Shown: positions 7,307-45,342, counted from the stretch's first letter. The stretch: 64,000 nt of DNA from Candidatus Geothermincolia bacterium (GCA_038326775.1 JBBQKJ010000007.1:16826-80825), one strand, 5' to 3'. A program made the numbers and translations. The notes: generated by a model from the letters alone, not told the origin.

Positions 7307-8290
7307 TTAAACGGGGACCTGGCCGGGCTGGACCTCCTGGAAGCTGCCGGCCATCTCGTTCAGCCTGCGTATGCGGTCCTCGATCGGAGGATGCGTGTCG
7401 AAGAGGCTGTTGAGCCGGCCGCCCTTGTTGCCCTTCTCAGTCTTGAGCGGCTGCGCTATGTACATGTGCGCGGTCGCTTTGTTGGCCCTGCGCAACTGGC
7501 GGTTGTCGCCTCCTATCTTGCCCAGGGCGTTGGCGAGCCCAGGTGGATAACGCGTGAGCAGTGCCCCGTTGGCGTCGGCCAGGTACTCGCGCTTGCGGCC
7601 GATGGCGAGCTTGATGAGCTGGGCTATGATCGGCGCCAGTATTGCGAAAACTATCGCCACCACCAGCATGATGATCCCGAACTCGCCGGAGTCGGAGTCG
7701 GAGTCGCTGTCCCCGCCGAACCAGAACGTCCTCAAGAATATGTCGGACATGAGTATGACCGTGCCCACCAGAACGATTGTCATGGTCATGATGAGGATGT
7801 CGTAGTTTTTCACGTGGGACATCTCGTGGGCTATCACACCCTGCAACTCCTGGTCGTTCATCATGGTGAGAAGCCCGGTGGTCACAGCGATAGCCGAATG
7901 GTCGGGGTTCCTGCCCGTGGCGAACGCGTTCGGCGCCTCGTCGTAGATCACGTAGGGCGCCGGCTTGGGCAGGCCCGCGGCGATGGCGAGGCCTTCCACC
8001 GCGTTATCGAACCTGATGGCGAGCGCCCTCCAGTTGGGGTCGTTCATGTACTGCTCGACCGGCGCGGCCCCCGACACGCGCAGCGCCACCTTGTCGCTGC
8101 GGTAGTAGGAGACAAGGCTCATGGTCAAGGCGATCACAACCGCAATGCCCAGGCCGATGAAGGCGTACTGGGGGTGGGACGTGCCGCCCCAGGCCAGGCC
8201 GATGACGTAGCCGATTCCCACCACGAACGCCACGAAGAAGACCATCATCAGGCCGGATTTCCACTTGTTGGCGCTTATCTGCTCGTACAA
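7307..8290 (-). CDS. htpX: Zinc metalloprotease HtpX (M48 family)
   Basis: Zinc site HEMSHVKNYD (HExxH), four TM segments, N-terminal MYEQISANKWKS. Sits downstream of lemA, the common LemA-HtpX pair. Confidence 0.85.
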   Translation of the reverse strand: MYEQISANKWKSGLMMVFFVAFVVGIGYVIGLAWGGTSHPQYAFIGLGIAVVIALTMSLVSYYRSDKVALRVSGAAPVEQYMNDPNWRALAIRFDNAVEGLAIAAGLPKPAPYVIYDEAPNAFATGRNPDHSAIAVTTGLLTMMNDQELQGVIAHEMSHVKNYDILIMTMTIVLVGTVILMSDIFLRTFWFGGDSDSDSDSGEFGIIMLVVAIVFAILAPIIAQLIKLAIGRKREYLADANGALLTRYPPGLANALGKIGGDNRQLRRANKATAHMYIAQPLKTEKGNKGGRLNSLFDTHPPIEDRIRRLNEMAGSFQEVQPGQVPV

Positions 8291-8359: not shown

Positions 8360-8971
8360 CTACTGCGCCGGCGGCGCTGTCGGAGCCGGCGGCTCGGGCG
8401 ATGACGGCGCCGTAAACGAGACCTTCGGCAGCTCGCGCGCGGCCGCGGTCTCCGGCTCGAAGTACTCGCGCTGCTCCTTGAAGTTGAACATCCCGGCGAT
8501 CATGTTCGCGGGGAACTTCTGGCGCGCGATGTCGTAGGCCATCACCGAGTCGTTGTAGAACTGGCGCGCGTAGGCTATCTTGTTCTCGGTGCCCGCGAGC
8601 TCCTCCTGCAGGGCCAGGAAGTTCTGGTTGGCCTTGAGGTCGGGGTACGCCTCCGCGACCGCGAAAAGCGACTTCAGCGCCTGCGTCATCATCCCGTCGG
8701 CCTGCGCGCTCTCTCCGACCGACTTGGCATTCATGATGGCGGAGCGAGCCTGCGTGACCGCCTCGAACGTCTCCCGCTCGTGGGATGCGTAGCCCTTGAC
8801 AGTCTCCACAACGTTCGGGATGAGATCGGCCCGGCGGTTCAGCTGGACGTCGATCTGGTGCCAGGCGTTCTCCACCCGGTTGCGGAAACGAACCAGCCGG
8901 TTGAACAGCATCGCGATGAAAGCCGCCAGGAGCACGACCACCGCGACGATGGCCACAATAACCCAGACCAT
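8360..8971 (-). CDS. lemA: LemA family protein
   Basis: An N-terminal TM helix followed by [42 protein letters not shown], the LemA signature. Confidence 0.85.
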
Positions 8972-9736: not shown

Positions 9737-10732
9737 TCAACCGGCGCCGTAGCGCGCGGCGAGCCGCTCCATGCCGCGGTCGAGCTGCTCCAGCACGGCC
9801 TTGTGCAGCGTCGCGTTGGCGCTGACGAGCGAGGACATCTGCCCTCCCCCACCTTGAGGGATCAGCGGGCACGGATCGAGAGACCCGCCGTAGGCGTCGC
9901 TGACTATCGCCCCCGCTTCCGAGGCTATCAACGCCGCGGCGGCGAGGTCGTAAGGGTAGTTGTTGAGGATATGGCCGTGGCCGACCTCAAGGAACATGCG
10001 GCGGACGTCGTCGACTTGCTCGGCCATCCGCTGGCCCGGGTCGACGTAGACGTCCATCTCCCCCTTGACAACGCGGGTGATGCTGAAGGTGGCGCTGCCC
10101 AGGTCGAAGTAGCCGCCGTCGACGGACGAGAGGTCGATGAGCTCACCGAGGACGGTCGTGAGCGGCTCAGCGGGCCTCCCCCGGTATCCCGCGGTCCAGA
10201 ATATGCGGTTCAGCGCGGTCGTGGTCGAGAGGTTGGGTTCGAGCGGCCTGTCTTCGTGCTCGACGCGAGCGCCCGCGCCCTTCAAGGCTATGAAAACGGC
10301 GTCGTTCTTTATCTCCCGCACGACGCCCAGGAAAACGTCACCTATGGTCAGGCTTTCCGCCTTCCCGTGGCTATACGGAGATACGGCGACCGAGACGCAG
10401 CACGACTCCAGGCCGGCGGCGGCGGGGCGGGTGCCGTCAATGGGGTCGATGATGAGAAGGAAGCGGGCGCCTGCCGACGCCACCAGTCCACGGTCTTCCG
10501 TGTAATAGGCGATGTCGCCGCGGGGGTCGAGCAGCTCGGCGATCTTCGCCTCGGCCGATTCGTCGATCGCGAAAGTGGTGTCGCCTGAAGCGCCGTGCCC
10601 CTCCAGGCCTTTCGCGGCGGCGCTCCCCATGCGCGGGCGCACCACTGAACGGACCTCTTCACACAGCCGCACGACCGTGTCGATGATGGGTGCGTTTTCT
10701 TTCCAGAATCGTTGCGCTTCCAGGGCGGACAT
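9737..10732 (-). CDS. Inositol monophosphatase / FBPase superfamily protein (SuhB/ImpA-like)
   Basis: Metal-binding motifs DPIDGT and WTAGYRG. Start placed at the internal ATG (MSALEAQRFW). The 80 upstream residues of the maximal ORF are Arg-rich junk. Confidence 0.78.
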   Translation of the reverse strand: MSALEAQRFWKENAPIIDTVVRLCEEVRSVVRPRMGSAAAKGLEGHGASGDTTFAIDESAEAKIAELLDPRGDIAYYTEDRGLVASAGARFLLIIDPIDGTRPAAAGLESCCVSVAVSPYSHGKAESLTIGDVFLGVVREIKNDAVFIALKGAGARVEHEDRPLEPNLSTTTALNRIFWTAGYRGRPAEPLTTVLGELIDLSSVDGGYFDLGSATFSITRVVKGEMDVYVDPGQRMAEQVDDVRRMFLEVGHGHILNNYPYDLAAAALIASEAGAIVSDAYGGSLDPCPLIPQGGGGQMSSLVSANATLHKAVLEQLDRGMERLAARYGAG

Positions 10733-10977: not shown

Positions 10978-12300
10978 TTGAAGTTGAGGGAGTGTCCCAG
11001 ATGTTCGTTTCTTAACCCGGACAGGGTGGAGAACTGCATCAAGTGCCGGTTCCTGATGAGCCGCGTCTATGGCGAGCAGCCTGTATCGGACCTTCGCGGT
11101 GAATCGCATGCCGGGAGCGCGCCGCCGGCCAGTCAGGGACCGACGCCCGATACCGTGCACGATGAGCGCGAAGAGTACCTCGACACGCCGCCCAGTTGGG
11201 CCAGTGGGAAGGTCGAGGAACCTGTACTGCGGGACATCAACGAGGAGTTCGAGAGCAGGTCTTACTATGAGGTTGGCGGTTACCGCATCGGAGGAGATCC
11301 CGGGAGCAATGTGTTCTCGGGGCCTCCAGCATCTGATGCCCATGCTGCAATGGACGGCGCCGATATCCACAGGCCGGGCAGTAAGGGTGCCGGGGCCAGG
11401 AAGAAAAAGAAGGAGAAGCAGGCCAGGGGGCTTTCCGGGCCGGCGAAGGAACGATCGGGCAAGGTCAGGCAAGCTCCTCCCGTCAAGGTGAAACCTGTGA
11501 AGGTGAAGCCCGTGAACGCGGGGAAGGCGCCCGACGCCGGGACCGTTCCGGGTGGAGTTCCTCGGGACCCCGCGCCGGCGGCAGTGCCGGTTACGCGGAC
11601 GACTGAGGCTCCCTCCGCGCCGTTTGCACCCCCCGCCACACACAGAACCGCACAGCCGGCAGCACAGGTTACCGATTCGTCAGCGGCGCCGATCGAGCGC
11701 GCCGGGCCCGCGGTCGCCCCATCGAAAGATGCCGAGCACGCACCTCCGCCTCAAGAGACACCGCCGCAGCCTGTCCAGCCGAAGCCTGTCACCGGGGCGC
11801 AGGTCGTAAAGGCACCGCAGGCGCCGTTCTCCATACCCGCCCGGCCCAGGACTCAGGGACGAAAGGTGGAGCAGTTCTCCCAGAGGCTTCCAGAGGCGGT
11901 ACAGCCAACCGCGCCCGCACCTGTTGAGAATCAAACACCGGTGCCTCCGCCGGTGTTAAAGACGACGCAGGAGGCAGTGCCCGTGCCCCCGGCCACTGCG
12001 GAGCAGGCGCCTTTGATAGAAGCGCGACCAGTCGTTGAACCGGCACCGGCACCCGTGCCCGCGCCAGCGCCCGCGCCGGTACCACCGCCGGTGACACCGC
12101 CGACCATTGAGCCGGAGGCTCCGAGGGCGCCGGCCGTCGAGACGGTATCCTTCGAGGGACCAGACCCAAAGAAGAAGAGTCGGCAGCGGGGTTCGCGCAG
12201 AGGGGCGGCGCACCCGCGCCCGGAGGATTTTCCACAGGTCGTCCCGGGAACCGGGACGCAGCGGAACACACCGCCCGGCGAGCAGCGTCAGCCGAAGTAG
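10978..12300 (+). CDS. Hypothetical protein: N-terminal zinc ribbon (CPRC...CIKC) followed by a long Pro/Ala-rich low-complexity region with internal repeats
   Basis: Double CxxC in the first 25 residues. The ORF fills a gap between convergent or divergent neighbours. The antisense ORF (10888-11643) is Arg-rich nonsense. Repeats VKVKPVKVKPV and PAPVPAPAPAPVPPPV. The exact start is uncertain (TTG at 10978 or 10984). Confidence 0.45.
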   Translation: MKLRECPRCSFLNPDRVENCIKCRFLMSRVYGEQPVSDLRGESHAGSAPPASQGPTPDTVHDEREEYLDTPPSWASGKVEEPVLRDINEEFESRSYYEVGGYRIGGDPGSNVFSGPPASDAHAAMDGADIHRPGSKGAGARKKKKEKQARGLSGPAKERSGKVRQAPPVKVKPVKVKPVNAGKAPDAGTVPGGVPRDPAPAAVPVTRTTEAPSAPFAPPATHRTAQPAAQVTDSSAAPIERAGPAVAPSKDAEHAPPPQETPPQPVQPKPVTGAQVVKAPQAPFSIPARPRTQGRKVEQFSQRLPEAVQPTAPAPVENQTPVPPPVLKTTQEAVPVPPATAEQAPLIEARPVVEPAPAPVPAPAPAPVPPPVTPPTIEPEAPRAPAVETVSFEGPDPKKKSRQRGSRRGAAHPRPEDFPQVVPGTGTQRNTPPGEQRQPK

Positions 12301-13388
12301 GCCGCCTCCAGGCGCTCGACCAGCCGCTCCCAGGAAAACTCTTTCACGCGTTCCAGCCCCGATGAGGCCAGCACGCTCCTCTTCGCATTGTCGCCAAGCA
12401 GGGCGACCAGCGACACCGCCAGGTTTTCCGCGTCACCGTTCTTGAAGAGGACGCCTCCTCCTGTCTGCTCGATAACCGCGCTGTAGCCGGGTATGTCCGA
12501 TGCTACCACCGCCGTTCCGCAGGCGTTCGCTTCGATGAGCACGACCCCGAAGCTCTCGCCCCCAAGAGCGGGCGCGCAGAAAACGTCGGCCGCCGAATAG
12601 TAGGCTGGCAACTCCTCGTTGCCGACAAACCCCACTACCACGACGCGATCGCGAAGGCCGCCGGGGACCAGGCGTTTGACCTTCGCCTCCTCGAAGCCGG
12701 CGCCCACCACCACCAGCCTGCAGTCCGGGACCGCGCGCGCTACAGCGACGAACGCGTCCAGCAGGACACCGATGCCCTTCCTCGGCTCGTTCCTGCCCAC
12801 GAAAAGCACCACCGGGCCTTCCCCGCCGGGAAAGCAGCGGGGACGCCGGCCACCCGGGGCGAAGCGGGCCAGATCCACGCCGTTGGGGATCACCCGGTAG
12901 TCACCAGGGAAGTAGCGCGAGGCGAGCAAGCGCGCCGGTTCGGATACGGCGATGAGGCAGTCGAGGCGGGCGTGGACCTTTCTGAAGAACGCCCTGGCCA
13001 GGCCGTAGGGGAGCGAGCGCCCCTCCTCCGCCGCGTGGAAAGTGCCGACAACCCGCTTGGGTGCGCCCACAACCGCTGAAGTAGAGACAAACGGGACCAT
13101 CGGCTCGTGCACGTGTACGACGTCGAACGCCCCCTCCCGAAGCGCCTTTTTAAGCCTGGAGCCAGCGCCCGGGAGAAGAGCGAGGTGGGCGATGGAGCCG
13201 TTGGCCGGCACCGGTATGGAGTGGCCCGCGGAAACGAAGCTCGTTCCGCCTTCACTCGCGCCCGCGTCGGGGGCCATGACGGTGACGTCGTGCCCGCGGC
13301 GGGCCAGCTCGCGCGAAAGCCCCTCGACGTGGTTGTTCACGCCGCCTGGATGTGCCCAGGAGTAAGGAGAGACTATGGCTATCTTCAC
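12288..13388 (-). CDS. GT4 family glycosyltransferase (PimA-like mannosyltransferase)
   Basis: MKIAIVSPYSWAHPGGVNNHV... is the GT-B/GT4 N-terminus. The EX7E-like motif is at the C-terminal end. Sits in the same minus-strand region as the acyltransferase and CDP-alcohol phosphatidyltransferase genes. Confidence 0.85.
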   Translation of the reverse strand: MKIAIVSPYSWAHPGGVNNHVEGLSRELARRGHDVTVMAPDAGASEGGTSFVSAGHSIPVPANGSIAHLALLPGAGSRLKKALREGAFDVVHVHEPMVPFVSTSAVVGAPKRVVGTFHAAEEGRSLPYGLARAFFRKVHARLDCLIAVSEPARLLASRYFPGDYRVIPNGVDLARFAPGGRRPRCFPGGEGPVVLFVGRNEPRKGIGVLLDAFVAVARAVPDCRLVVVGAGFEEAKVKRLVPGGLRDRVVVVGFVGNEELPAYYSAADVFCAPALGGESFGVVLIEANACGTAVVASDIPGYSAVIEQTGGGVLFKNGDAENLAVSLVALLGDNAKRSVLASSGLERVKEFSWERLVERLEAAYFG

Positions 13389-13446
13389 AGCGCCACCGCC
13401 ATGCGCGAACCGCGTAAATCGTTTATCATTTCAACCATAAATGCAA

Positions 13447-13469
13447 GAAAGTAACCTGACCCCGATGTT
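13447..13469. repeat. Solo copy of the 15-mer TGACCCCGATGTTGC (arm-like fragment of the palindromic element family)
   Basis: Exact 15-mer shared with 63134-63148 and, as an inverted copy, with 63057-63071. It shares the core CTGACCCCGAT with the 94-bp elements. Confidence 0.45.
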
Positions 13470-13492
13470 GCACGGACGGAGGCGGCAAGCGC

Positions 13493-14140
13493 GTGAGGTC
13501 CCTCGTTCAGTTCCTTATGAGCCTCGACCGGTCGGTGTTCCAAGGCATCAACTCGCTTGCCGGTAAGTTCTTCCTTATTGACTGGCTCGCCCGCGTCGGC
13601 GCCGACGACCATATCGTACCAATCGTTCTGGCCCTGCTGGTGCTGTTCCTCGTTCTCCTGGCGAGGAACCGCCGCCAGAGGGAATCCGCCTACACCTGCG
13701 TGATATGCGCGGTGCTCGCCGTGACCCTGTCGATGGTCATACTCTTCACGTTGAACGCCGCCTTCTTCAGGCCGAGGCCGTTCACCACGCAGCCGGTCAG
13801 GCTGCTCCTCTACCATAACACCGACTCGGCCTTCCCTTCCAACGCTGCGACGCTGGCGTTCGTGCTGGCGTTCGCGGTGTTGCTCTACAACCGCGCGGTC
13901 GGCGCGGTGATGCTGGGGCTGGCGGCCTTCCTGGGGCTTTCGCGAATCATTGTGGGGGTACACTATCCCCTGGACATCATCGGCGGGGCCCTGTTGGGTC
14001 TGGCGTGCGCCCTTCTCGCGGGAGCGGCCGAGCCTCTGTACCGCCCGCTCGCCCGCGGCCTCAACTCGGCCACCGACCGGCTGTTGGCCTCGTGGAGGCG
14101 CCCCGGCGCCTTCGAGGCGCGAGGGGGCGGGGGCGGATGA
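13493..14140 (+). CDS. PAP2 superfamily phosphatase (phosphatidic acid phosphatase type 2 / undecaprenyl-diphosphatase-like)
   Basis: Six TM segments. PAP2 motifs: FPSNAAT corresponds to the PSGH region and SRIIVGVHYPLDIIGG to the SRxxxxxHxxxD motif. Confidence 0.72.
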   Translation: MRSLVQFLMSLDRSVFQGINSLAGKFFLIDWLARVGADDHIVPIVLALLVLFLVLLARNRRQRESAYTCVICAVLAVTLSMVILFTLNAAFFRPRPFTTQPVRLLLYHNTDSAFPSNAATLAFVLAFAVLLYNRAVGAVMLGLAAFLGLSRIIVGVHYPLDIIGGALLGLACALLAGAAEPLYRPLARGLNSATDRLLASWRRPGAFEARGGGGG

Positions 14141-15213
14141 GCAAAGTGATCCACATGCGCGGTGATATAGCGGACATGTTCGTGCTGTTCCTGTTCGTTT
14201 TCCTAGGTGCCTGGCAGGTGCTCGTAGCCTGGTACCGCCTGAGCGGCTTCTCGCTCACCGGGTACCCGGACCGCCGGTGCTGGAGCATGGTAACAGGGGC
14301 CGTACTCGTCGCCGGCTCTTGTTCCTGGTACTTCTCCACACCGGGGCATTTCGCCTCGCCTGACGTGGAGGGCGTCGAGACTATGCTACTCCTGGTGGCG
14401 GGGCTGGTTGCCGCTACCGCAACGCACGTCGCCCTCGTATTGCTGGTGCAGTTGGCGCGCCGTCCGCGAGGCAAGGCCGTGCCCTTCAGGACGCCGGTCG
14501 AGGAGCTCTCGATCGCCGTCGGCGGGGCGTCGGTGCCGTCATGGTTCGAGCCGGCCCGGGGTGCGGGCGCGAAGGCCACGCCCGCGCTGCTTCTGCACGA
14601 CTACGGTGGCGGCCGGAACGACCTTTGCGCGCTCGCCTCGGCCCTGGCTGAGAGCGGGCATTCCGCCCTCGCGGTCGAGCTGGACGGTCACGGTGACAAC
14701 CCGCGCGAGATCGATTCGCCCGTGATGAGCGACCTCCTCGAGGCGGCCGCGCATGCGCTCATGCGAAGGGCTGGCAGCGAAGCGTTCGTCGCTGTCGGGG
14801 TCGGTCTCGGTGGAACGCTTGCGATAGAGCTGTTCAGGAAGGGGCTGGCCGACAGGGCGGTGGCCTTAGACCCACCCGCGAGGGACGGTGACGGCTTCCC
14901 GGCGGTGAACGCGCTCGGCGAGTTGGGGCCGCTCGCGGTCGCGAGAGCGTTTGCCAGGCCACCAGCGCGTGGCGCCGGAGGAACCCGGCTCAGCCTGGCG
15001 AGGCTTCTGGCGGGGCTGCCCGCGGCCGGGGCGCTCGAGCCGGGCCGTGTTATCGTCGTAGGCACGCAAGAGAAGTGGTTCAACGCGCCGGACACTCTCG
15101 AGGATTTCGTTCGCGCGAGCGGCCTGCCGGGGACTCTGCCGGTCCCGTCGAGACACGGCACAATCGCCCGGGACGCGGGGGCTATGGAAGCGGTGGTACG
15201 GGCGCTTGACTGA
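14137..15213 (+). CDS. Membrane-anchored alpha/beta-hydrolase-fold protein (function unknown)
   Basis: Start placed at the internal ATG (MSKVIHMRG), which overlaps the PAP2 stop as ATGA. Two or three N-terminal TM helices, then LLLHDYGGG...HSALAVELDGHGDN (HG-type oxyanion region). The nucleophile elbow reads GVGLGG; it has no Ser, so catalytic competence is uncertain. Confidence 0.5.
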   Translation: MSKVIHMRGDIADMFVLFLFVFLGAWQVLVAWYRLSGFSLTGYPDRRCWSMVTGAVLVAGSCSWYFSTPGHFASPDVEGVETMLLLVAGLVAATATHVALVLLVQLARRPRGKAVPFRTPVEELSIAVGGASVPSWFEPARGAGAKATPALLLHDYGGGRNDLCALASALAESGHSALAVELDGHGDNPREIDSPVMSDLLEAAAHALMRRAGSEAFVAVGVGLGGTLAIELFRKGLADRAVALDPPARDGDGFPAVNALGELGPLAVARAFARPPARGAGGTRLSLARLLAGLPAAGALEPGRVIVVGTQEKWFNAPDTLEDFVRASGLPGTLPVPSRHGTIARDAGAMEAVVRALD

Positions 15214-15215
15214 TG

Positions 15216-16091
15216 CTACTGCCGATCGGACGGCCAGGCCGGCATGAACATATGCCACTGGGCAGGGTCTTCTCGGATAAGCTCTTCGAGGTTTCTTGCA
15301 ACCTGCCGCATCGTCTCCCTGATGGCCTCTTCTCTGTCGCCCGACCCGTCGAGCCATATCGGCTCGGTCAAATGGCCTATCCAGCCGTCGCCTACGTTCC
15401 GTACGGTTACGCAGACTATGGGGGCCCCACTGCGCATGGCAAGTGTGGCCGGCCCAGGCGGCAGCGTGGTGCGCTCCCCGAAAAACTCCACCTCGACGCC
15501 TTTTCCCTTGAGGTCGCGATCGCAGAGGAGCGCGAGCATGGTGCCGTTCTGAAGTGACTCCACCATGGCGTCCCGGGTCTCAGGCAGGTGGTCGTAGGGG
15601 AAGATATCGATGCCGACCCCTTTGCGAAGCCTGCAGAAAAGCTCGAAGAGCTCAGGCGGCTTGAGCACCTCGGCCACGGCGGCGAACGGGCACAGGCTCG
15701 AAAGGAAGACCGCGCCCGCTTCCCACGAACCGAAGTGGGGCAGGACCACCAGCACCCCCTTGCCGGCGTCTATCGCCCTGGTGAGCGCCGGCAGGTTCAC
15801 CTTGCCGAAGCGCTCGAGCACGTACTCCCTCGACTTCGTCGGTAGCCAGAAGATATCGACCCAGTAGTCTGCGTAATACCGGCAGGCGCGGCGGGCGGTT
15901 CGCTTGACCTCCCTGTTGCTTGCCGTGGGGCCAAGGGCCCGCCGCATGTTGCGCTCAACGAGATGGCGCTTGCGGGGAAAGGCGTAATAGTAGAAAAGCG
16001 CGCCGGCGCGCGCGATCGCGCGGGTGATCCGCACCGGCACCCATCCGATGATTTTGTCGGCCAGCAGGAAGAGGTGGTAGACGGGGTTCAT
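15216..16091 (-). CDS. Lysophospholipid/lipid A-type acyltransferase (HtrB/LpxL-PatA family)
   Basis: Similar to LPLAT/PatA acyltransferases (HFGSWE region). Its start ATG overlaps the stop of the upstream CDP-alcohol phosphatidyltransferase by 4 nt, which supports an operon. Confidence 0.72.
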   Translation of the reverse strand: MNPVYHLFLLADKIIGWVPVRITRAIARAGALFYYYAFPRKRHLVERNMRRALGPTASNREVKRTARRACRYYADYWVDIFWLPTKSREYVLERFGKVNLPALTRAIDAGKGVLVVLPHFGSWEAGAVFLSSLCPFAAVAEVLKPPELFELFCRLRKGVGIDIFPYDHLPETRDAMVESLQNGTMLALLCDRDLKGKGVEVEFFGERTTLPPGPATLAMRSGAPIVCVTVRNVGDGWIGHLTEPIWLDGSGDREEAIRETMRQVARNLEELIREDPAQWHMFMPAWPSDRQ

Positions 16092-16756
16092 CTTTCCAGT
16101 GCCCTCCAGACCTCGATCAGCCTCTCGACCAGGGTCTCGACCAGTAGAACGGCAAGCACCCACAGCACCACCCTGAGCACCCAGGGCGAGAGCCCGTTGA
16201 AGAAAAGCCCCACCATGAGCAGGATGATGCGCGGCGCCCTGGCCATCAAGCCGGCCTTGCAGTGCACGTCGAGGGACTCCGCCCTGGCCCTGACATAGCT
16301 GATGAGGAACGAGACCACCAGCACCACTAGCGCCAGTCCGACGTAAATGCCCTCGGTACGCTTCATGTAGTAGACGACCAGGCCAAGGTAGATGGCCGCG
16401 TCGCTCAGGCGATCGGAAAACGAATCGAGGAACGAGCCGAAGACGGTTATCCGGTCAAGTTTCTTCGCGACGTATCCGTCGACGATGTCGAGTATTCCCG
16501 AGAGGGTGAATAGGACCGCGGCGAGGGGAACGCTCCCCACGCTCAAGAAATAGCCGCTGGCGATGGCGAGCGCCAGCCCGAACATGGTGATGATGTTGGG
16601 CGATACGCCCAGTTTCCCGAAGAACCACGTAAACGGGCGGAACACGAAGTCTGAAAACCATCGCAGGCCCTCGTCCATCTTCTGCCCGCGCGTCGGAGCG
16701 GCATGCGCGGTCTCCATCGCCTCTCCTGCTTGATCGACCTTCGCGTCGCCTTCCAT
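16088..16756 (-). CDS. CDP-alcohol phosphatidyltransferase (PgsA/PIP-synthase-like)
   Basis: Motif DIVDGYVAKKLDRITVFGSFLDSFSDRLSD fits D-G-x2-A-R-x8-G-x3-D-x3-D. Six TM segments. ATG at 16754-16756 is preceded by AGGAGGGG. Confidence 0.8.
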   Translation of the reverse strand: MEGDAKVDQAGEAMETAHAAPTRGQKMDEGLRWFSDFVFRPFTWFFGKLGVSPNIITMFGLALAIASGYFLSVGSVPLAAVLFTLSGILDIVDGYVAKKLDRITVFGSFLDSFSDRLSDAAIYLGLVVYYMKRTEGIYVGLALVVLVVSFLISYVRARAESLDVHCKAGLMARAPRIILLMVGLFFNGLSPWVLRVVLWVLAVLLVETLVERLIEVWRALER

Positions 16757-16767
16757 TTACCCCTCCT

Positions 16768-16860
16768 GATAATTGGGGTCAGATCTGATTTCATCAGTCA
16801 AGCTCAGGGTGGATCAGGCGAGATCGACACTGATGAAATCAGATCTGACCCCAATTATTA
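16768..16860. repeat. 93-bp palindromic intergenic element (perfect 28 to 31-bp inverted arms, 30-bp unique core)
   Basis: The left arm gataattggggtcagatctgatttcatcagt and right arm actgatgaaatcagatctgaccccaattatta are exact reverse complements. The terminal TTA (16858-16860) is the stop codon of the upstream minus-strand DUF2007 gene. The SD and ATG of the CDP-alcohol transferase follow 5 nt beyond the left arm. Confidence 0.8.
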
Positions 16861-17073
16861 GTCTATGTCCCAGATCTCGTTCAGTATTGCTCGAGCCTCC
16901 TCCGCGCGCTCCTCGGGCACCAGCACTCCGTGCTGGCCTCCGATGCCGGTGTAAGCGGAAGCTCCGGGCCGCCTTAGCATGACCGGGATGCCCTCCGCCC
17001 TGACGGCGGACTCGAGCATGCCCGCGGCTATCTGGTCCGGCGCCGTGGCGACCTCGGCCCACTCCCGGGGCAC
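16858..17073 (-). CDS. Small DUF2007-like protein (putative signal-transducing PII-like fold)
   Basis: ...LESAVRAEGIPVMLRR...HGVLVPEERAEEARAILNEI fits the DUF2007 pattern. Start chosen at the GTG at 17071-17073, 10 nt past the proS stop. The maximal ORF overlaps proS. Confidence 0.45.
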   Translation of the reverse strand: MPREWAEVATAPDQIAAGMLESAVRAEGIPVMLRRPGASAYTGIGGQHGVLVPEERAEEARAILNEIWDID

Positions 17074-17083
17074 GCCCGTCAAC

Positions 17084-18790
17084 CTACGGCGCTTCGGCGA
17101 GGGCCCTTTCGATCTCTCCGGCGGCGGACTCAAGAGGCGCCTCCCTCCTCTCACCGGTGCAGCGAAGCTTCAGGTCCACCGTGCCATCCGCAAGCTTCTT
17201 GCCCACCACCACCTGGAGGGGCAGGCCCACAAGGTCGGCGTCGTTGAACTTGACCCCCGGGCTCGCCTCGCGGTCGTCGAGCAACGCCTCGAGCCCGCGC
17301 CCGGCGAGCTCGCTCTCGAGCCGCCGTGCCGCCTCAGCCTGCTCGGTCCTCGACGGGGCGACAACAATTATCTCCACCGGCAGCGGGGCGACGGCCCTGG
17401 GCCACCTGATGCCCGCCTCGTCGTGGTGCTGCTCGACAACCGTCTGGAGCATGCGCGAGGTCCCGATGCCGTAGGTGCCCATGATGATAGGGCGGAGCGC
17501 GCCGTCCCTGTCGGTGAACTCGACCTTGAGTGCCTTGGTGTACCTGGTGCCCAGCTTGAATATATGACCGATCTCGATTCCCCGGGCGATGTCGAGCCTG
17601 CCCTCACACCTGGTGCAGAGGTCGCCTTCGACGGCGCCCGCAACATCGGCGGTCGGTTCCGCGGAGAAGTCACGGCCTTCCTCGACCCCCCTCAAGTGAT
17701 AGTCCGGCTTGTTCGCGCCGCAGGCCAGCCCGCGCGCTCCCATGATCTCGCGGTCGAACATCACTCGCGCGCCCGCAAGCCCCACCGGGCCGGTATAGCC
17801 GGGCGTGACCGCGGGATGGGACTCGCGCTCGTCGTCCCGCATCACGTGAAACTCGTCAGTGCCGAGCGCCCGCGCCAGTTTCGCCTCGGAAACCTCCCGG
17901 TATCCGGGAACGAACACGGCCAGCGGCTCTCCCTCGACCACGTACAGGACGCACTTGAGGACGTCGTCTGACGTGGTGCCCAGGAACCCGGCAACCTCGG
18001 CAACCGTCACAAGACCTGGGGTATGGACCTCCTCCAGCGGCGGGGACTCCCCGCCCCCGAACCGGCGGCCGGGACGGTGCGCCTCGAGTTCTGCGTTCGC
18101 ACCGTAATCGCACTCCTCGCAGTAGACCAGCACGTCCTCCCCGACCTCGGAGACTACCATGAACTCATGGGAGACGTCACCACCGATCAGCCCGGTCGAA
18201 GCCTCGACTACCTTTGCCTGGAGGGAACACCTGAGCGCCACCGTGGAGTACGCCTCGCGCATGCGCTCGTAAGTGAGCTGGAGGTCCTCCTCGTCAGCGT
18301 GGAAGCTGTACGCGTCCTTCATCCTGAACTCGCGGCCGCGCAGCAGCCCGAACCGGGGCCTTATCTCGTCGCGGAACTTTGTCTGGATCTGGTAGAGGTT
18401 CACCGGCAGGTCACGGTAGGACGGCGCCGTCCTGCCGACCATCGACGTGATGAGCTCCTCGGCGGTGGGTCCGAGGCAGAAGTCGCGGCCGGCGCGGTCC
18501 TTTATCCTCATCATCTCGGGGCCGTAAGCGTACCAGCGGCCGCTGGTCATCCAGGGGTCAGCGGGATGGAGGGAAGGCAGAACGACCTCGAGAGCCCCGG
18601 CGGCGTTCATCTCGTCGCGGACTATTCCCTCGATCCTGGCAAGCGCCAGGCTGCCGAGCGGCAGCAGCGTATATATGCCGGCGGCCACGGACCTCAGCAT
18701 GCCGGCCCGCAGCAGCAGCTCGTGGCTGATTATCTCGGCCTCGGCCGGCTTCTCCTTCAGCGTCGGCACTATGACCCGCGAGAACTTCAA
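17084..18790 (-). CDS. proS: Proline--tRNA ligase ProS (bacterial type with editing domain)
   Basis: 568 aa. MKFSRVIVPTLKEKPAEAEIISHELLLRAGMLR N-terminus, class II motifs and a C-terminal anticodon-binding domain. Confidence 0.95.
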   Translation of the reverse strand: MKFSRVIVPTLKEKPAEAEIISHELLLRAGMLRSVAAGIYTLLPLGSLALARIEGIVRDEMNAAGALEVVLPSLHPADPWMTSGRWYAYGPEMMRIKDRAGRDFCLGPTAEELITSMVGRTAPSYRDLPVNLYQIQTKFRDEIRPRFGLLRGREFRMKDAYSFHADEEDLQLTYERMREAYSTVALRCSLQAKVVEASTGLIGGDVSHEFMVVSEVGEDVLVYCEECDYGANAELEAHRPGRRFGGGESPPLEEVHTPGLVTVAEVAGFLGTTSDDVLKCVLYVVEGEPLAVFVPGYREVSEAKLARALGTDEFHVMRDDERESHPAVTPGYTGPVGLAGARVMFDREIMGARGLACGANKPDYHLRGVEEGRDFSAEPTADVAGAVEGDLCTRCEGRLDIARGIEIGHIFKLGTRYTKALKVEFTDRDGALRPIIMGTYGIGTSRMLQTVVEQHHDEAGIRWPRAVAPLPVEIIVVAPSRTEQAEAARRLESELAGRGLEALLDDREASPGVKFNDADLVGLPLQVVVGKKLADGTVDLKLRCTGERREAPLESAAGEIERALAEAP

Positions 18791-33968: not shown

Positions 33969-35762
33969 TCACCCGTCTTTGCGTGCCGCTCGAGCAATCC
34001 GGAAAAGGTAGTCCGTGCCGAACCTCCGCAGGAGGTTGAAGTCGTCGTGATCGGCGGCCCAACCGAGCACACTTTGGAGCCGCGCGGGCTCCAGGAGCTT
34101 TCCGTGCACTATCACAAACTCGACCCCCTCCTTCTTGAAGAAGTCAACCGCTCCCTGCGACGGGAAGTCGCTGGTCGCCTTCACCCCTTTATAGTAGGAG
34201 TCGGGTATGAACCCGCTGTAGCCGTTGAATATCCTCTTCCAGTGAAGGGTCGAGAAGTAGGTGTACCAGGCCTCGCGCGGGGCCCAGGTTTCCTCGTACT
34301 GCAGCCCGGCGGCGTAGGTCCGCTGGTTGTAATCGGCAAGCGGGAGCTCGACGGTCGGTGTGGGGCCGGGCTGGTTCTTTAGCCAGGTGTAGACCGCCGG
34401 GAACTCCTCTTTGGGCGGCACCTCGAACATCGGAAGCCCCGCCGACATCAGGTCGGTAAGGAGAAGCGCGAGTATCAGGACCGTGGCGAGCGCGGAGAGG
34501 ACCGCCTTGCCTTTTCGCTTCGAGAGCCAGGAGAGAATGCCCCTGACCGCAAAGCCGGAGAGCACCGCCAGGGACAGCGCAATGAGAACGACGAAGCGTG
34601 GCGGGACGCGCATGACCTTGAACCCGGGGAAAAGGTGGTAGAAAAGCTCGTATGGCATTGGCAGGTCAAGCCTGTGTCCGAAGATGAAAAGGGAGCTGCC
34701 CAGGCACATCACGAACGAAGCCGCGATAAGCGTGACGTAATAACGGACGTCAAAACGGGCGGCGCCCTTTCCCTTTGCGAACAGGTACGCGGCACCCGCC
34801 GCCCCGAGGATGAGGGGGACCAGGCCCGGGAAAAGGGAGCGCTCTGTCTGCCCGCCTCTCTTGTTCGTCCCTTCACGCAGGCCGGCGGCAGTCTTCCCCC
34901 AGAGCTTGTTCTCCGCCGGGGCCACCGCGAAGTCCGTCACGTCCGCGCTGAAAAGGTCGACCTCCCCCATCTTGCGCTCAAAGCGCTTCTGCCCGCCCTG
35001 CACCCGCAGGTAAGGCATGGCGAACGGGAGGATTATCGCGCCCGCGAACGCCAGCACGACCACCAGGCTCAAGGTCCACCTCAAGGTGAACGCCCGCGGC
35101 TTCATGACCAGCCGTACCACCAGGAAGACCAGGATCGCGAACGCCAGGATCATGGCGTAGTACCAGGTCGAGAGCGCCTCCAGCACGAAGAAAAGCCCGC
35201 AGAGGACAGCGTCGACCGGCTTGCCCTCCTCCGAGTACCGGTGCAGGAAAAGCAGGCATAGCGGGATGAACGCCGCGGCCGATAGCTGGAGGTGCCCCAT
35301 GTGGGCGAGCCTCGCCGGCGCGAAAGCGAAGGCGATGCCGGCTACCACCCCCGCGGTCCTGCTTCGCGTCAGGTGCACCACGAGGAGGTAAGCGCCCACC
35401 TCGCAGAGGAAGAAGTTGAAGATAAGCATGTAGTTGGCCGTCTGCATCGGGTTACCTGTGATGCCCAGCAGGGGCAAAGCCATCACCGCGGTCACAAACT
35501 GGTGGTCGGAGTACGCCAGGGTGTCGGGGTTCGGGAAGAAGATGTTGGCGTTAAAAAGGTTGAAAGGGTTCTGCGTTATGGACCTGGCGTCCCAGGCCAG
35601 CGTCCAAGCCTGGAAAGTCGGGTCGTAGGGGTTCTTGTAGGCATGGTCTCGCCCCTGGGTCAACAGCGGCCGGGTGAACACCATCGCAAGCAGGATGAAC
35701 GCCAGTATGATGACGAGCCCGGGCCCTCTTTTCCTGATGAATCCCGCGAACTTCTTACCCAT
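33969..35762 (-). CDS. Large polytopic membrane protein, GT-C-fold glycosyltransferase-like (YfhO/ArnT/PMT-like) with C-terminal extracytoplasmic domain
   Basis: Roughly 12 predicted TM helices. N-terminal loop PYDPTFQAWTLAWDA...NIFFPNPDTLAYSDHQF. C-terminal soluble domain of about 200 aa. Start placed at MGKKFAGFIRKRG. The family call is tentative. Confidence 0.45.
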   Translation of the reverse strand: MGKKFAGFIRKRGPGLVIILAFILLAMVFTRPLLTQGRDHAYKNPYDPTFQAWTLAWDARSITQNPFNLFNANIFFPNPDTLAYSDHQFVTAVMALPLLGITGNPMQTANYMLIFNFFLCEVGAYLLVVHLTRSRTAGVVAGIAFAFAPARLAHMGHLQLSAAAFIPLCLLFLHRYSEEGKPVDAVLCGLFFVLEALSTWYYAMILAFAILVFLVVRLVMKPRAFTLRWTLSLVVVLAFAGAIILPFAMPYLRVQGGQKRFERKMGEVDLFSADVTDFAVAPAENKLWGKTAAGLREGTNKRGGQTERSLFPGLVPLILGAAGAAYLFAKGKGAARFDVRYYVTLIAASFVMCLGSSLFIFGHRLDLPMPYELFYHLFPGFKVMRVPPRFVVLIALSLAVLSGFAVRGILSWLSKRKGKAVLSALATVLILALLLTDLMSAGLPMFEVPPKEEFPAVYTWLKNQPGPTPTVELPLADYNQRTYAAGLQYEETWAPREAWYTYFSTLHWKRIFNGYSGFIPDSYYKGVKATSDFPSQGAVDFFKKEGVEFVIVHGKLLEPARLQSVLGWAADHDDFNLLRRFGTDYLFRIARAARKDG

Positions 35763-35864
35763 GCCCGTGATTATAATAAATCTGGCCTCAATCCTGTCTC
35801 GTGAAGCTTCGCTGAAAGACGCGGGGACGGTTTGCGGATGCATGTACGCCGGCCCGGACCCCCG

Positions 35865-42484: not shown

Positions 42485-42693
42485 GCCTCTCCTCCTTTTC
42501 CCTGGCCCCGCTGGACCAAATGCTGAATTCCTCGCTTTTACTCTCAGATTTGACCGTTCCGGCTGATTTACCTTAACAGGTTTCGCCGGAGCCCGCCCTC
42601 TGACCTCCCTGCCCAACTCGGAGGAAATGCTTCTTTCGTCTCGAAGGGGGACGCGGTATATACTTCACACAGCGCTATCCGGGAGGAGCAGAC

Positions 42694-43344
42694 ATGCCTG
42701 AGGATTTTGATGACGTGCGACACGGCTACTACGAATCCCGCTGCGAGGCGGCGGTCAAAGCGCTGGGGAAGCGCTGGTTCGAAGCCAGGTGGTTCGATAA
42801 CCAGGAGAGGGCGGCCGAGGCGGTCCTCGAGCTCATCCCACGAGGCTCGAAGGTCGGAGCGGGGGGGTCTGTGACCCTGCGGGAGACCGGAGTGCTGGAG
42901 CTTCTGGAGGAGCGCGGCGACGAGGTCGTGTACCACAGGCCGGAGATGGGATTTGAGGAGAGCCTCGAAGTTCGCAAGGAGGCCATCACGTGCCCGTACT
43001 TCCTCTGCTCGAGCAACTCCATAACCATGGAGGGAGAGCTTATCAATACAGACGGCATGGGAAACAGGGTCGCGGGAATGATTTTCGGGCCTCAGACGGT
43101 GATAGTGCTCGCCGGCGCCAACAAGCTGGTCGAAAACCGCCAGGAGGCGTTCTCTCGCATAAGGAACGTCGCCGCGCCCGCCAATGCCCGCAGGCTGGGC
43201 ATGGACCTGCCCTGCGTGACGAAGGGGCGCTGCGTGGACTGCGGCGAGCCCATGAACATATGCAGGGTGACCACTATCATCAGCCGCAAGCCGATACTGA
43301 CCGACCTCAAGGTCTACCTGGTCGCCGAGCCCCTCGGCCTGTGA
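42694..43344 (+). CDS. LUD-domain (LutC/YkgG-like, DUF162) protein
   Basis: Length and blocks (...VGAGGSVTL...GANKLVEN...) resemble LutC-family proteins. A CxxC pair lies near the C-terminus. The family was assigned from memory. Confidence 0.5.
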   Translation: MPEDFDDVRHGYYESRCEAAVKALGKRWFEARWFDNQERAAEAVLELIPRGSKVGAGGSVTLRETGVLELLEERGDEVVYHRPEMGFEESLEVRKEAITCPYFLCSSNSITMEGELINTDGMGNRVAGMIFGPQTVIVLAGANKLVENRQEAFSRIRNVAAPANARRLGMDLPCVTKGRCVDCGEPMNICRVTTIISRKPILTDLKVYLVAEPLGL

Positions 43345-43370
43345 CATGACACGGGGAGCAGGCCGGCCCC

Positions 43371-44162
43371 TCAGTCTTCGGCTGCAGCCTGGTGGAGGTA
43401 AGCCTTGATGACGCAGTGCTCCTCGAAGCCAAGCCTGCGGTACACCGGAAGGCCCATTTCCGTCGCGTGGAGGATACCCAGACGGCAGCCGCCCGCCCTC
43501 GCGTCCAGCTGTGGGGCCAGGCTCACGAGCGCACCCATCCCGGCGCCGCGGCACTCGGGCAACGTCGCGACGTTGTAGAGGCCGACCACCTCGCCGTCCG
43601 AGAAGGTTGAAGAGCAAGCGGTGGGCGTATCGTCCTGGTAGCCGACAAAGTGCCTGAAAGGGCAGGTCGCCCCGAGCCCCGCGAGCCGAATGGCGCCGGT
43701 GAAAAATTCGGTGACGAAGTCGGGTATCTCGTAACCCCGTTGAAACACCCCGGCCCAGTCCGCGAGGCCATCTTCGCTGTCGACCGAGGCGATTCGCGCC
43801 CCTGGCGGCGCCTCCGCATCCCCCAGCGCCGAAAGCTCTACTGCCATCCCGGGGGCCTCCTGGGCCAGCACCAGCCCGTGCTTCTCGAGAGCGCCCCCCA
43901 GGCCGGCAGGGAGCGTGGAAGGGCCGACCCACCAGAGCATCGGAAGGCTTCTGGACCTGAAGTGCTCGAGAGCGCCCTCTATCCTGTCGTGGATGCCGCC
44001 CTCGCCGAACCTCGCGTTGAAAACGCCGTTGCAAAGCGCGTAATCCACGCCGCTCGAGAAGCGCATCATGTCCCGTCCGTCGTAGAGATCCACGCCCGGA
44101 ATGCTGACAAGATGCCTCCACGCCTCTACCAGGTTCTTTTCTATCGCCTCAACATAGTCCAT
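43371..44162 (-). CDS. GNAT family N-acetyltransferase (tandem/extended GNAT)
   Basis: The C-terminal half has the acetyl-CoA-binding motif LYNVATLPECRGAGMGAL and the ...YRRLGFEE tail typical of GNAT. Confidence 0.62.
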   Translation of the reverse strand: MDYVEAIEKNLVEAWRHLVSIPGVDLYDGRDMMRFSSGVDYALCNGVFNARFGEGGIHDRIEGALEHFRSRSLPMLWWVGPSTLPAGLGGALEKHGLVLAQEAPGMAVELSALGDAEAPPGARIASVDSEDGLADWAGVFQRGYEIPDFVTEFFTGAIRLAGLGATCPFRHFVGYQDDTPTACSSTFSDGEVVGLYNVATLPECRGAGMGALVSLAPQLDARAGGCRLGILHATEMGLPVYRRLGFEEHCVIKAYLHQAAAED

Positions 44163-44217: not shown

Positions 44218-45234
44218 TCAGGGGGGACGGCGGTACCAGTCCACCAGCTTCGCGACGGGTGGATAGATATATCGAGCGGCGCCGAGGCTCCTGGCGACCT
44301 TCTCGGACTTCTCAGGGACCTTCGACTTCGCCGAGCGCAGCGCGATGAACCACGCGCGCGGGTTCCTGCGTGAAAGCAGCCCTTCCAGGCTGTAGACGCT
44401 GACGTCGCGCACGCCGGCGGCCAGCGCCGCCTGCACCCCCACCAGCAGCTCCTCCGGCCTCCTGAACGTCGGTTCGTCCTCGAGCACACCAGCGCCTGTC
44501 AGCCCCAGCGACACACCCGCCCCGCCGGCATATTTCTCCGTCAGCTTCAGGCAGGAATCGTAGACAAGCCAGTTGGCGTCGCGTGAGTTCATAGCACCCC
44601 CGGCCATTCCCTCGATCATGGTGACGTAGAGCATGGGGCTGATGACATCCCAGGCGATCCCGGCCACCGGCGTCTCGCTCATGTCCTGTATCAGCTCGTG
44701 CTCCCCCTCCAGTTCGAGCCCCACCCACGGCATGACCGCGGCGACGGTCCTTATCCCCCGGTCCTGTATCCAGTGGTTGAGCTCGTCCAGGCCCGCCTTG
44801 GCCTTGAAGTAGCGCTCTCGGTCGAGGTTGTCACGCATGGCGTCGTAGACTCCCTTGAGTTTCGAGAGCCTGGTGGAGGCGCCGCTGACCTCGTGCATCT
44901 GCTGTACGGGAGGCTCGAGGTCGAGGGCCAGCATGTCCGGCACTACCTCGTTCTTCAGGGACCACTCGACCATGTGCCTGACCATAGCCGAGTACTCCGT
45001 GATGTTGCCCTCCCCGGGAAAGTACCCCTGTTCCTGCTCCATCAGGGGCCAGAAGGTCAGCTCGATGCCCGCCTGTCTCAGCTTGCGAAAAGCGTTGGCG
45101 TTCTTCTTTGTCAGCGAGACCGGGTACATCGCCGCCGCGACACCCGCCTCGAACTCGCTCAAGAGCTCTATGGCGTTCTTAGCGATGTCCGGCGGAGTGA
45201 TGAATTCCGCCCAGAACCTCAGGTGATATTTCAT
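44218..45234 (-). CDS. Hypothetical protein (possible TIM-barrel glycosidase-like fold)
   Basis: Long ORF with protein-like composition and no recognised motifs. Start placed at MKYHLRFWAEF. Confidence 0.4.
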   Translation of the reverse strand: MKYHLRFWAEFITPPDIAKNAIELLSEFEAGVAAAMYPVSLTKKNANAFRKLRQAGIELTFWPLMEQEQGYFPGEGNITEYSAMVRHMVEWSLKNEVVPDMLALDLEPPVQQMHEVSGASTRLSKLKGVYDAMRDNLDRERYFKAKAGLDELNHWIQDRGIRTVAAVMPWVGLELEGEHELIQDMSETPVAGIAWDVISPMLYVTMIEGMAGGAMNSRDANWLVYDSCLKLTEKYAGGAGVSLGLTGAGVLEDEPTFRRPEELLVGVQAALAAGVRDVSVYSLEGLLSRRNPRAWFIALRSAKSKVPEKSEKVARSLGAARYIYPPVAKLVDWYRRPP

Positions 45235-45342
45235 AAGAGCATTATCGAGCCAATCGGTCTCAGCAGGCAACATCCGCGCACGCGGCCGTCCGTAGACCAG
45301 GTCAGACGGAAGATTGCTGAAAAAGCCAGCGCGGGTTCAAGT

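Follow-up and report, generated by a model that had tools for sequence, protein, structure and literature searches.

The 64,000-nt stretch of DNA from Candidatus Geothermincolia bacterium that was analysed as a whole (GCA_038326775.1, JBBQKJ010000007.1:16826-80825; hereafter the window) carries on its minus strand the genes of a predicted early pathway for phosphatidylinositol mannosides (PIMs), namely a CDP-alcohol phosphatidyltransferase, a PatA-type acyltransferase and a PimA-type GT4 glycosyltransferase. Between the last two, on the opposite strand, lies a pair of genes encoding a PAP2-fold membrane protein and a partner with an alpha/beta-hydrolase fold. A first-pass annotation, made from the DNA alone, had proposed the PAP2 protein as the phosphatase that turns phosphatidylinositol phosphate (PIP) into phosphatidylinositol (PI). 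The pair is an insertion in one clade and not a conserved part of the operon; it is an old, self-contained two-gene module that is also found in quite different neighbourhoods.

The identity of the minus-strand trio was examined using NCBIfam models and solved structures in the Protein Data Bank (PDB). The transferase scored 153.5 bits on the PIPSynth model (NF045883), below the equivalog cut-off of 170, and is therefore a divergent enzyme of the PIP synthase (PIPS) type, named by its best match only. It reached 148 bits on the model for archaetidylinositol phosphate (AIP) synthase and 34, 31 and 29 bits on those for pgsA, ClsA and PssA, which sets it among the PIP/AIP synthases (153 and 148 bits) and apart from the synthases of phosphatidylglycerophosphate (PGP), cardiolipin or phosphatidylserine (34 bits at most). 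Among structures, it matched PIPS from Renibacterium (5d92, 2e-24) and PgsA1 from M. tuberculosis (6h53, 5e-21), compared with only 6e-5 for PGP synthase. Its translation contains the CDP-alcohol motif DIVDGYVAK-x8-GSFLDSFSD, i.e. DX2DGX2A(K)X8GX3DX3D, with Lys in place of the canonical Arg. The acyltransferase exceeded the cut-off of the family 'phosphatidylinositol mannoside acyltransferase' (NF005919, 215.2 bits against 209) and matched the PatA structure 5oce at 2.2e-37 across residues 18-289, compared with just 2e-7 for LpxL. The GT4 protein matched M. smegmatis PimA (4n9w/2gej) over residues 1-357 at 1.5e-65 and 224.7 bits, the next GT4 enzyme following at 94 bits; no NCBIfam family was over cut-off for it. 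To judge from these matches, the trio is a true PIP-synthase/PatA/PimA early-PIM operon of the pgsA1-patA-pimA type, in line with the gene set and order recognised in the first pass.

A metagenome scan seeded with the PatA alignment yielded 79 loci, which were annotated together with earlier loci by profiles of all the cluster proteins (individual loci are cited by L numbers). Among close relatives, the pair lies between PatA and GT4 in 44 of the 49 informative loci. In the remaining five (L045, L046, L055, L056 and L060), GT4 follows straight after PatA with a gap of -49 to +24 nt, and the order IspG-ProS-DUF2007-PIPS-PatA-GT4-IMPase-LysE-LemA-M48 is retained (IMPase, inositol monophosphatase). 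These five loci fall at three places within the pair-bearing clade of a neighbour-joining PatA tree; such a topology suggests one gain of the pair followed by repeated loss or relocation. Distant relatives, with PatA 34-40% identical, have PIPS, PatA and GT4 contiguous and lack the pair in 38 of 38 informative loci, L088 and L081 included despite the same macro-synteny. Absence was scored at the trio locus, and the pair may lie elsewhere in such genomes, as it does in L011. The PAP2 gene is thus missing beside the trio in 5 of 49 close and 38 of 38 distant loci, and both counts go against the proposal of the first-pass annotation. Downstream of the trio, many distant loci carry ORFs (open reading frames) identified by eye as PdxS-like and PdxT-like. 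When the ORFs flanking 42 distant-relative loci were clustered, no phosphatase was found to recur beside the trio; the recurrent ORFs were lookalikes of PdxS, PdxT, YebC and RuvA (again by eye), an EF-G-like GTPase, a citrate-synthase-like protein and spurious antisense ORFs. The entire block of 12 genes keeps its synteny throughout the lineage, so the adjacency of PAP2 to the trio carries little independent weight for a shared function.

The PAP2 fold is present in the window protein, for which LpxE and PgpB are the closest enzymes. Its best-matching named family was the undecaprenyl-diphosphatase NF008813 (80.9 bits against a cut-off of 229), and the SepP model gave 52 bits against 250; by score, therefore, the protein is no member of the YbjG/BcrC-type undecaprenyl-diphosphate phosphatase family. 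Neither PAP2 nor the partner matched a PgpA-family model in Pfam or NCBIfam. In the family alignment, R151, H157 and D161 of the C3 motif are invariant (45/45) and the Ser position is variable. The Arg-Pro of the C1 motif KX6RP is likewise invariant, its Lys being replaced by Asn in 44 of the 45 sequences; the C2 motif reads P-S-N-(A/P)-A and has lost its His in all 45. An additional motif, GADDH/NDY, is conserved. The invariance of the C3 Arg, His and Asp and of the C1 Arg-Pro suggests that selection for phosphate chemistry has acted in the window's clade. The C2 His is the usual general acid for expelling an alcohol leaving group, e.g. the inositol hydroxyl of PIP. In Aquifex aeolicus LpxE this His is replaced by Asp, yet the enzyme is reported to be active on lipid A 1-phosphate and undecaprenyl diphosphate (C55-PP) (PMC6581854), so a missing His is no proof of PAP2 inactivity. 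The possibility of a PAP2-type transferase (Aur1- or SMS-like) was dropped, because those enzymes require the C2 histidine.

Membrane topology was predicted from the counts of Lys plus Arg (the positive-inside rule) across the family alignments. By these counts, loops 57-64 and 131-135 and the C-terminal tail of PAP2 would be cytoplasmic, and the C1/C2 and C3 loops together with the GADDH motif would lie at the outer face. An outward-facing active site is the orientation known for the characterised bacterial PAP2 lipid phosphatases. For the partner, the hydrolase-fold domain is predicted to be cytoplasmic and an acidic loop (residues 68-81) to be outside.

The alpha/beta-hydrolase fold of the partner was confirmed, and three transmembrane (TM) helices precede it. 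Its nucleophile elbow has the form G-x-G-x-G with Gly223 in 46 of 46 sequences, and the lack of a nucleophile noted in the first pass (GVGLGG) extends to the whole family. H340 and D245 (after strand 6) are invariant in the core clade; in the wider family D245 gives way to Ala, and G, D, N or R is found in place of the 'nucleophile'. The best-conserved stretches are found in the membrane domain (HMRGD, LTGYPDRR and WYFSxPGHFASPDVEGxE). A profile search of 1.84 billion representatives recovered 28 close relatives and a second tier at 20-25% identity that shares the 3-TM plus hydrolase-fold architecture. The hydrolase-like domain would be an accessory or regulatory pseudoenzyme. The invariant His71 of the outer loop was considered as a stand-in for the lost C2 His and set aside as a general explanation because it is not conserved in the wider partner family.

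Every member of the partner family with a readable context has a PAP2 gene directly adjacent, and the surroundings of the pair vary. In L004, a homologous pair lies within an operon for carbon monoxide dehydrogenase/acetyl-CoA synthase (CODH/ACS), with the partner 29% (E 3e-13) and PAP2 43% identical to those of the window; further homologous pairs occur in L021/L022 and L104. In L011, the pair is located beside a lycopene cyclase and an ABC transporter, and no PIM genes were detected in this locus, whose 15.3 kb extend about 3.5 kb to the PAP2 side and about 10 kb beyond the partner. With 54% and 50% identity to the window proteins, the L011 pair is closer to them than some in-operon orthologues and so looks like a relocated copy. 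Two distant organisms (L023, 5381-9948; L103, 5379-9864) share a conserved set of four genes, in which PAP2 and the partner are followed by an unknown protein (about 390 aa) and a GT-C glycosyltransferase of the MptA/B family (47% identity between the two loci); in the L103 PAP2, Cys replaces the C3 nucleophile His. The His-less PAP2 of L020 (7384-8438) is preceded by a 154-aa protein that is essentially the 3-TM domain of the partner, matching profile positions 8-111 (E 6e-24) and a further 22-residue stretch, the hydrolase fold being otherwise absent. Hence what stays constant in the partner is the membrane domain, and the pair can do without the hydrolase fold. All partnered PAP2s, the distant homologues included, have PSN[AP]A or PSSAA and no C2 His, and the two related PAP2s verified as unpartnered (L005 and L106) have PSDH. 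The correlation between partnering and C2-His loss is complete in a small sample of 8 partnered lineages and 2 verified unpartnered ones. No PAP2 gene lies next to a weakly related canonical Ser-hydrolase (GVSLGG). The contig scan with the partner alignment relied on two highly specific peptide patterns; it yielded no more than 14 loci, all from the same lineage, and does not amount to a presence/absence survey. As a separate observation, the metagenome-assembled genome JAQURN01 (isolate STD1_74) contains two diverged PAP2-partner-PatA copies on separate contigs (L017 and L018), which may reflect strain mixing in the bin or a duplication.

Gene positions in the window (Table 1) were obtained from a six-frame ORF list and from reading of the sequence; the five cluster genes and the IMPase-family gene were found where the first-pass annotation had placed them, and the ATGA overlap that it described between the PAP2 and partner genes (14137-14140) is seen in the sequence. 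The annotated cluster genes have family matches far beyond chance in Pfam and NCBIfam. The PAP2 gene begins with GTG, with GGAGG about 10 nt upstream, and the PIPS and patA genes share a 4-nt overlap. The TGA stop of the partner gene (15211-15213) and the TAG stop of patA (15216-15218, minus strand) are convergent and 2 nt apart; with no terminator between them, the partner and patA transcripts from opposite strands would overlap. No convincing sigma-70-type promoter was found in the 104-bp region upstream of PAP2 and pimA, and when 12000-17300 was scanned for promoters and terminators, no signal exceeding shuffle expectation emerged that would account for the operon structure. The DUF2007 gene overlaps the end of the proS ORF, and its location is kept across the whole lineage. 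The order frr, cdsA, dxr, rseP, ispG, proS, trio, LemA, M48, DUF3048, pdxS, pdxT, yebC, ruvB surrounds the cluster, which we take to be the classical actinobacterial gene order. No genes for MIPS or PgpA were found among the large ORFs of the window. Elsewhere in it, four large ORFs (351-808 aa) at 33969-35843 (-), 42568-44121 (-), 44218-45273 (-) and 59788-62214 (+) have no Pfam family at E<=1e-6; their neighbours are housekeeping genes (ffh, ftsY, smc and recG).

Table 1. Genes and other features at the PIM locus of the window.
Feature	Position (nt)	Strand	Basis and remarks
DUF2007 small protein	16858-17154	-	Between proS and the PIP synthase gene
CDP-alcohol phosphatidyltransferase, PIP-synthase (PgsA1/PIPS) type	16088-16756	-	NCBIfam and PDB matches, motif
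PatA-type PIM acyltransferase	15216-16091	-	NCBIfam NF005919, PDB 5oce
Partner protein	14137-15213	+	Three N-terminal TM helices, alpha/beta-hydrolase fold predicted cytoplasmic, Gly at nucleophile position
PAP2-fold membrane protein	13493-14140	+	C2 His absent (PSNA), C3 R-x5-H-x3-D intact, C1 Lys to Asn
Divergent intergenic region	13389-13492		104 bp, between the PimA-like gene and the PAP2 gene
PimA-type GT4 mannosyltransferase	12288-13388	-	PDB PimA 4n9w/2gej
Zn-ribbon/Pro-rich ORF	10978-12300	+	No Pfam/NCBIfam family; between pimA and the IMPase-like gene
IMPase/FBPase-family phosphatase	9737-10732	-	Pfam Inositol_P 3.5e-19
LemA-family gene	8360-8971	-	Pfam LemA 5.7e-61
M48 peptidase gene	7307-8290	-	With the LemA gene, between pimA and pdxS

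Downstream of pimA, the IMPase-family protein is divergent, with all its NCBIfam matches under cut-off. In nine of 32 related loci (L040, L042, L043, L034, L045, L060 and L088 among them), the gap between the GT4 and IMPase genes is below 100 nt, and in the outgroup L088 (10859-12951) GT4 and IMPase share a 4-nt overlap. Of the 32 loci, 22 have more than 1 kb of spacer between pimA and the IMPase-like gene, and nine lack such a spacer. At this place the window has an ORF of 440 aa, whose N-terminal part holds a CxxC...CxxC zinc-ribbon and whose tail is long and Pro-rich, and a gene is called at the same location in L001 and L003. This ORF represents a second variable opposite-strand insertion, indicating that the region tolerates foreign genes. 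By position, the IMPase-family gene would be a better candidate for the PIP phosphatase than the PAP2 pair, and its product possibly plays a role in PI/PIM synthesis, PIP dephosphorylation included.

The explanation that we favour, with somewhat better than an even chance of being right, is that the pair constitutes a heteromeric outer-leaflet PAP2 module inserted into the PIM operon of one clade. PIP synthase, PatA and PimA would provide the early PIM pathway of an Actinomycetota lineage (Ca. Geothermincolia/Anoxymicrobiaceae-like), and an existing two-gene module would have been inserted on the opposite strand at the patA-pimA junction of one clade. The catalytic loops of PAP2, from which the C2 histidine has been lost, would face outside, and the three-helix membrane domain of the partner probably packs against PAP2. 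We infer that the two proteins interact physically and jointly form a lipid phosphate/pyrophosphate phosphatase of the outer leaflet. Favoured substrates would be those with a good leaving group, e.g. polyprenyl diphosphate or a lipid-linked envelope intermediate, so that the module might serve general, possibly GT-C-dependent, envelope glycolipid assembly and not the cytoplasmic PIP-to-PI step. Several points weigh against this explanation. The pair is kept at the patA-pimA spot in most loci of a deep clade (44/49, PatA identity down to about 49%), and the 104-bp divergent region common to the pair and pimA makes co-regulation with PIM synthesis possible. The association with an MptA/B-family GT-C hints at a link to PIM/lipomannan-type glycolipids instead of to a generic recycling of carrier lipids. 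As far as topology alone is concerned, PIP could be a substrate, because the outward-facing PgpB of E. coli dephosphorylates PGP that is synthesised at the cytoplasmic side. In L103, Cys takes the place of the C3 nucleophile, so some members may not be phosphatases.

The first-pass proposal that PAP2, with or without its partner, dephosphorylates the product of the neighbouring PIPS to give PI for PimA has become quite unlikely. It draws on the location of PAP2 in the patA-pimA interval of 44 of the 49 close loci, its divergence from pimA across 104 bp and the failure to find a PgpA-type PIP phosphatase gene among the large ORFs of the window; the PAP2 protein Rv3807c, which acts on decaprenyl-P-ribose-5-P, also counts for it. 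The PAP2 enzyme PgpB performs an analogous head-group dephosphorylation of PGP (PMC6581854). As the first-pass annotation stated, the step long had no assigned enzyme, and for actinobacteria this holds: the PIP phosphatase was 'as-yet unidentified' in July 2026 (bioRxiv 10.64898/2026.07.15.738315). Literature searches found no paper tying PAP2 to bacterial PIP dephosphorylation and nothing relevant on inositol lipids in Geothermincolia. What weakens the proposal is the distribution of the pair, missing from 43 loci that keep the trio, its existence as an independent module in PI-unrelated contexts, the loss of the general-acid His (45/45) and the predicted outward topology. The cytoplasmic side of the membrane is where PIPS and PimA work, opposite to the predicted position of the PAP2 catalytic loops, and adjacency within a syntenic 12-gene block is weak evidence. 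A broader version, in which the pair is a hitherto undescribed two-component membrane enzyme devoted to inositol-glycolipid/lipomannan biogenesis, sitting in the PIM operon in Geothermincolia and clustered with an MptA/B-type GT-C elsewhere, and in this lineage supplies the PIP-to-PI step, the partner giving the missing catalytic group or playing a role like that of mycobacterial EphE, is in our view unlikely. EphE (Rv3670/ML2297) has been proposed as a PIP phosphatase; it is reported to lack the nucleophile (Ala122) and keep His and Asp, with PimA and the LemA-like Rv2609c as its predicted binding partners, and its deletion is reported to lower AcPIM2 (10.64898/2026.07.15.738315). By analogy, the cytoplasmic-face domain of the partner might work with PimA as a PIP phosphatase or scaffold, PAP2 being secondary. 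The invariant Gly at the nucleophile position, the invariant H340 and D245, the predicted cytoplasmic domain inside a PIM operon and the LemA gene downstream of the trio are consistent with such a function, which we nevertheless regard as very unlikely: the partner always travels with PAP2 and occurs outside PI clusters, its hydrolase domain is missing altogether in L020, and beyond the core clade D245 is not kept and the nucleophile residue may be G, D, N or R. In addition, the EphE elbow lies at residue 122, compared with 223 in the partner, which would leave no room for a comparable 3-TM domain.

The IMPase/FBPase-family protein as the PIP phosphatase of the lineage is the least improbable of these alternatives, still rather unlikely, and is compatible with the favoured explanation of the pair. 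Its gene follows pimA directly on the same strand in nine of the 32 loci, overlaps it by 4 nt in L088, and in the window is split from it only by the variable opposite-strand insertion. The protein is soluble and cytoplasmic, and its family hydrolyses the ester of inositol-1-phosphate, the same ester as on PIP; cleavage of this ester on PIP by a cytoplasmic family member would be plausible. Because the bacterial PI route takes inositol phosphate directly (PMC9246714), the classical IMPase role is not needed for PI synthesis. Against this assignment, a single-sequence profile did not detect IMPase by the trio in other distant actinobacterial loci, where PdxS/PdxT/YebC-like ORFs recur instead, and the protein's task may simply be the production of free inositol or the turnover of a different sugar phosphate. 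A non-catalytic pair, with a degenerate PAP2 and a pseudo-hydrolase forming an envelope unit for lipid binding, sensing or scaffolding, would be in keeping with the loss of the C2 His in all partnered PAP2s, the loss of the C1 Lys, the Cys at the C3 His in L103 and the lack of a hydrolase nucleophile throughout the partner family. We hold it to be very unlikely, given the invariant Arg, His and Asp of C3 and Arg-Pro of C1 (45/45) in the window's clade and the reported activity of A. aeolicus LpxE without the C2 His (PMC6581854).

In mycobacteria and their relatives, PI and PIMs are essential lipids of the envelope. The locus does not decide the PIP phosphatase question in favour of PAP2 but narrows it: the pair is an insertion, and the IMPase-family gene after pimA in relatives offers a testable alternative. 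It also provides a second nucleophile-less alpha/beta-hydrolase with a physical link to PIM genes, a parallel to the proposal for EphE. Across distant lineages, His-less PAP2s are strictly paired with a dedicated 3-TM protein, and this pairing defines an uncharacterised membrane module.

Compared with known systems, the window has the same three enzymes in the same order as the mycobacterial operon pgsA1 (Rv2612c)-patA (Rv2611c)-pimA (Rv2610c)-Rv2609c, and the wider order to pdxS-pdxT-yebC-ruvB is kept. The LemA gene is distal to pimA, as has been reported for Rv2609c/ML0451c (10.64898/2026.07.15.738315). Unlike in mycobacteria, patA and pimA are parted by the opposite-strand PAP2-partner pair, a second inserted ORF parts pimA from the downstream genes, and IMPase-like, LysE, M48 and DUF3048 genes are present, with no NUDIX domain seen. 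PgpB of E. coli and B. subtilis and LpxE of A. aeolicus differ from the window PAP2, whose C2 motif (PSNA) has neither His nor Asp, whose C1 Lys is Asn and which carries the extra GADDH/NDY motif; PAP2s of the window type are always paired with a dedicated 3-TM partner gene, an arrangement undescribed for PgpB and LpxE. The only bacterial PIP-to-PI phosphatase with genetic evidence, BT_1525 of Bacteroides, belongs to the PgpA family and is encoded in an inositol-lipid cluster next to PIP synthase (PMC9246714), whereas the window PAP2 is of a different family and no PgpA-like gene occurs among the large ORFs. The inositol phosphorylceramide synthase Aur1-Kei1 similarly combines a PAP2-like catalytic subunit with an obligate membrane partner. 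The analogy is confined to structure: the His-His-Asp triad is retained in Aur1, which is a transferase, and Kei1 is unrelated to the window partner. EphE, in turn, is encoded away from the mycobacterial operon, would by residue numbering have no comparable 3-TM domain and has no PAP2 partner. What EphE and the window partner share, at the level of the superfamily, is an alpha/beta-hydrolase fold without a nucleophile and with its His kept; EphE is functionally tied to early PIM synthesis.

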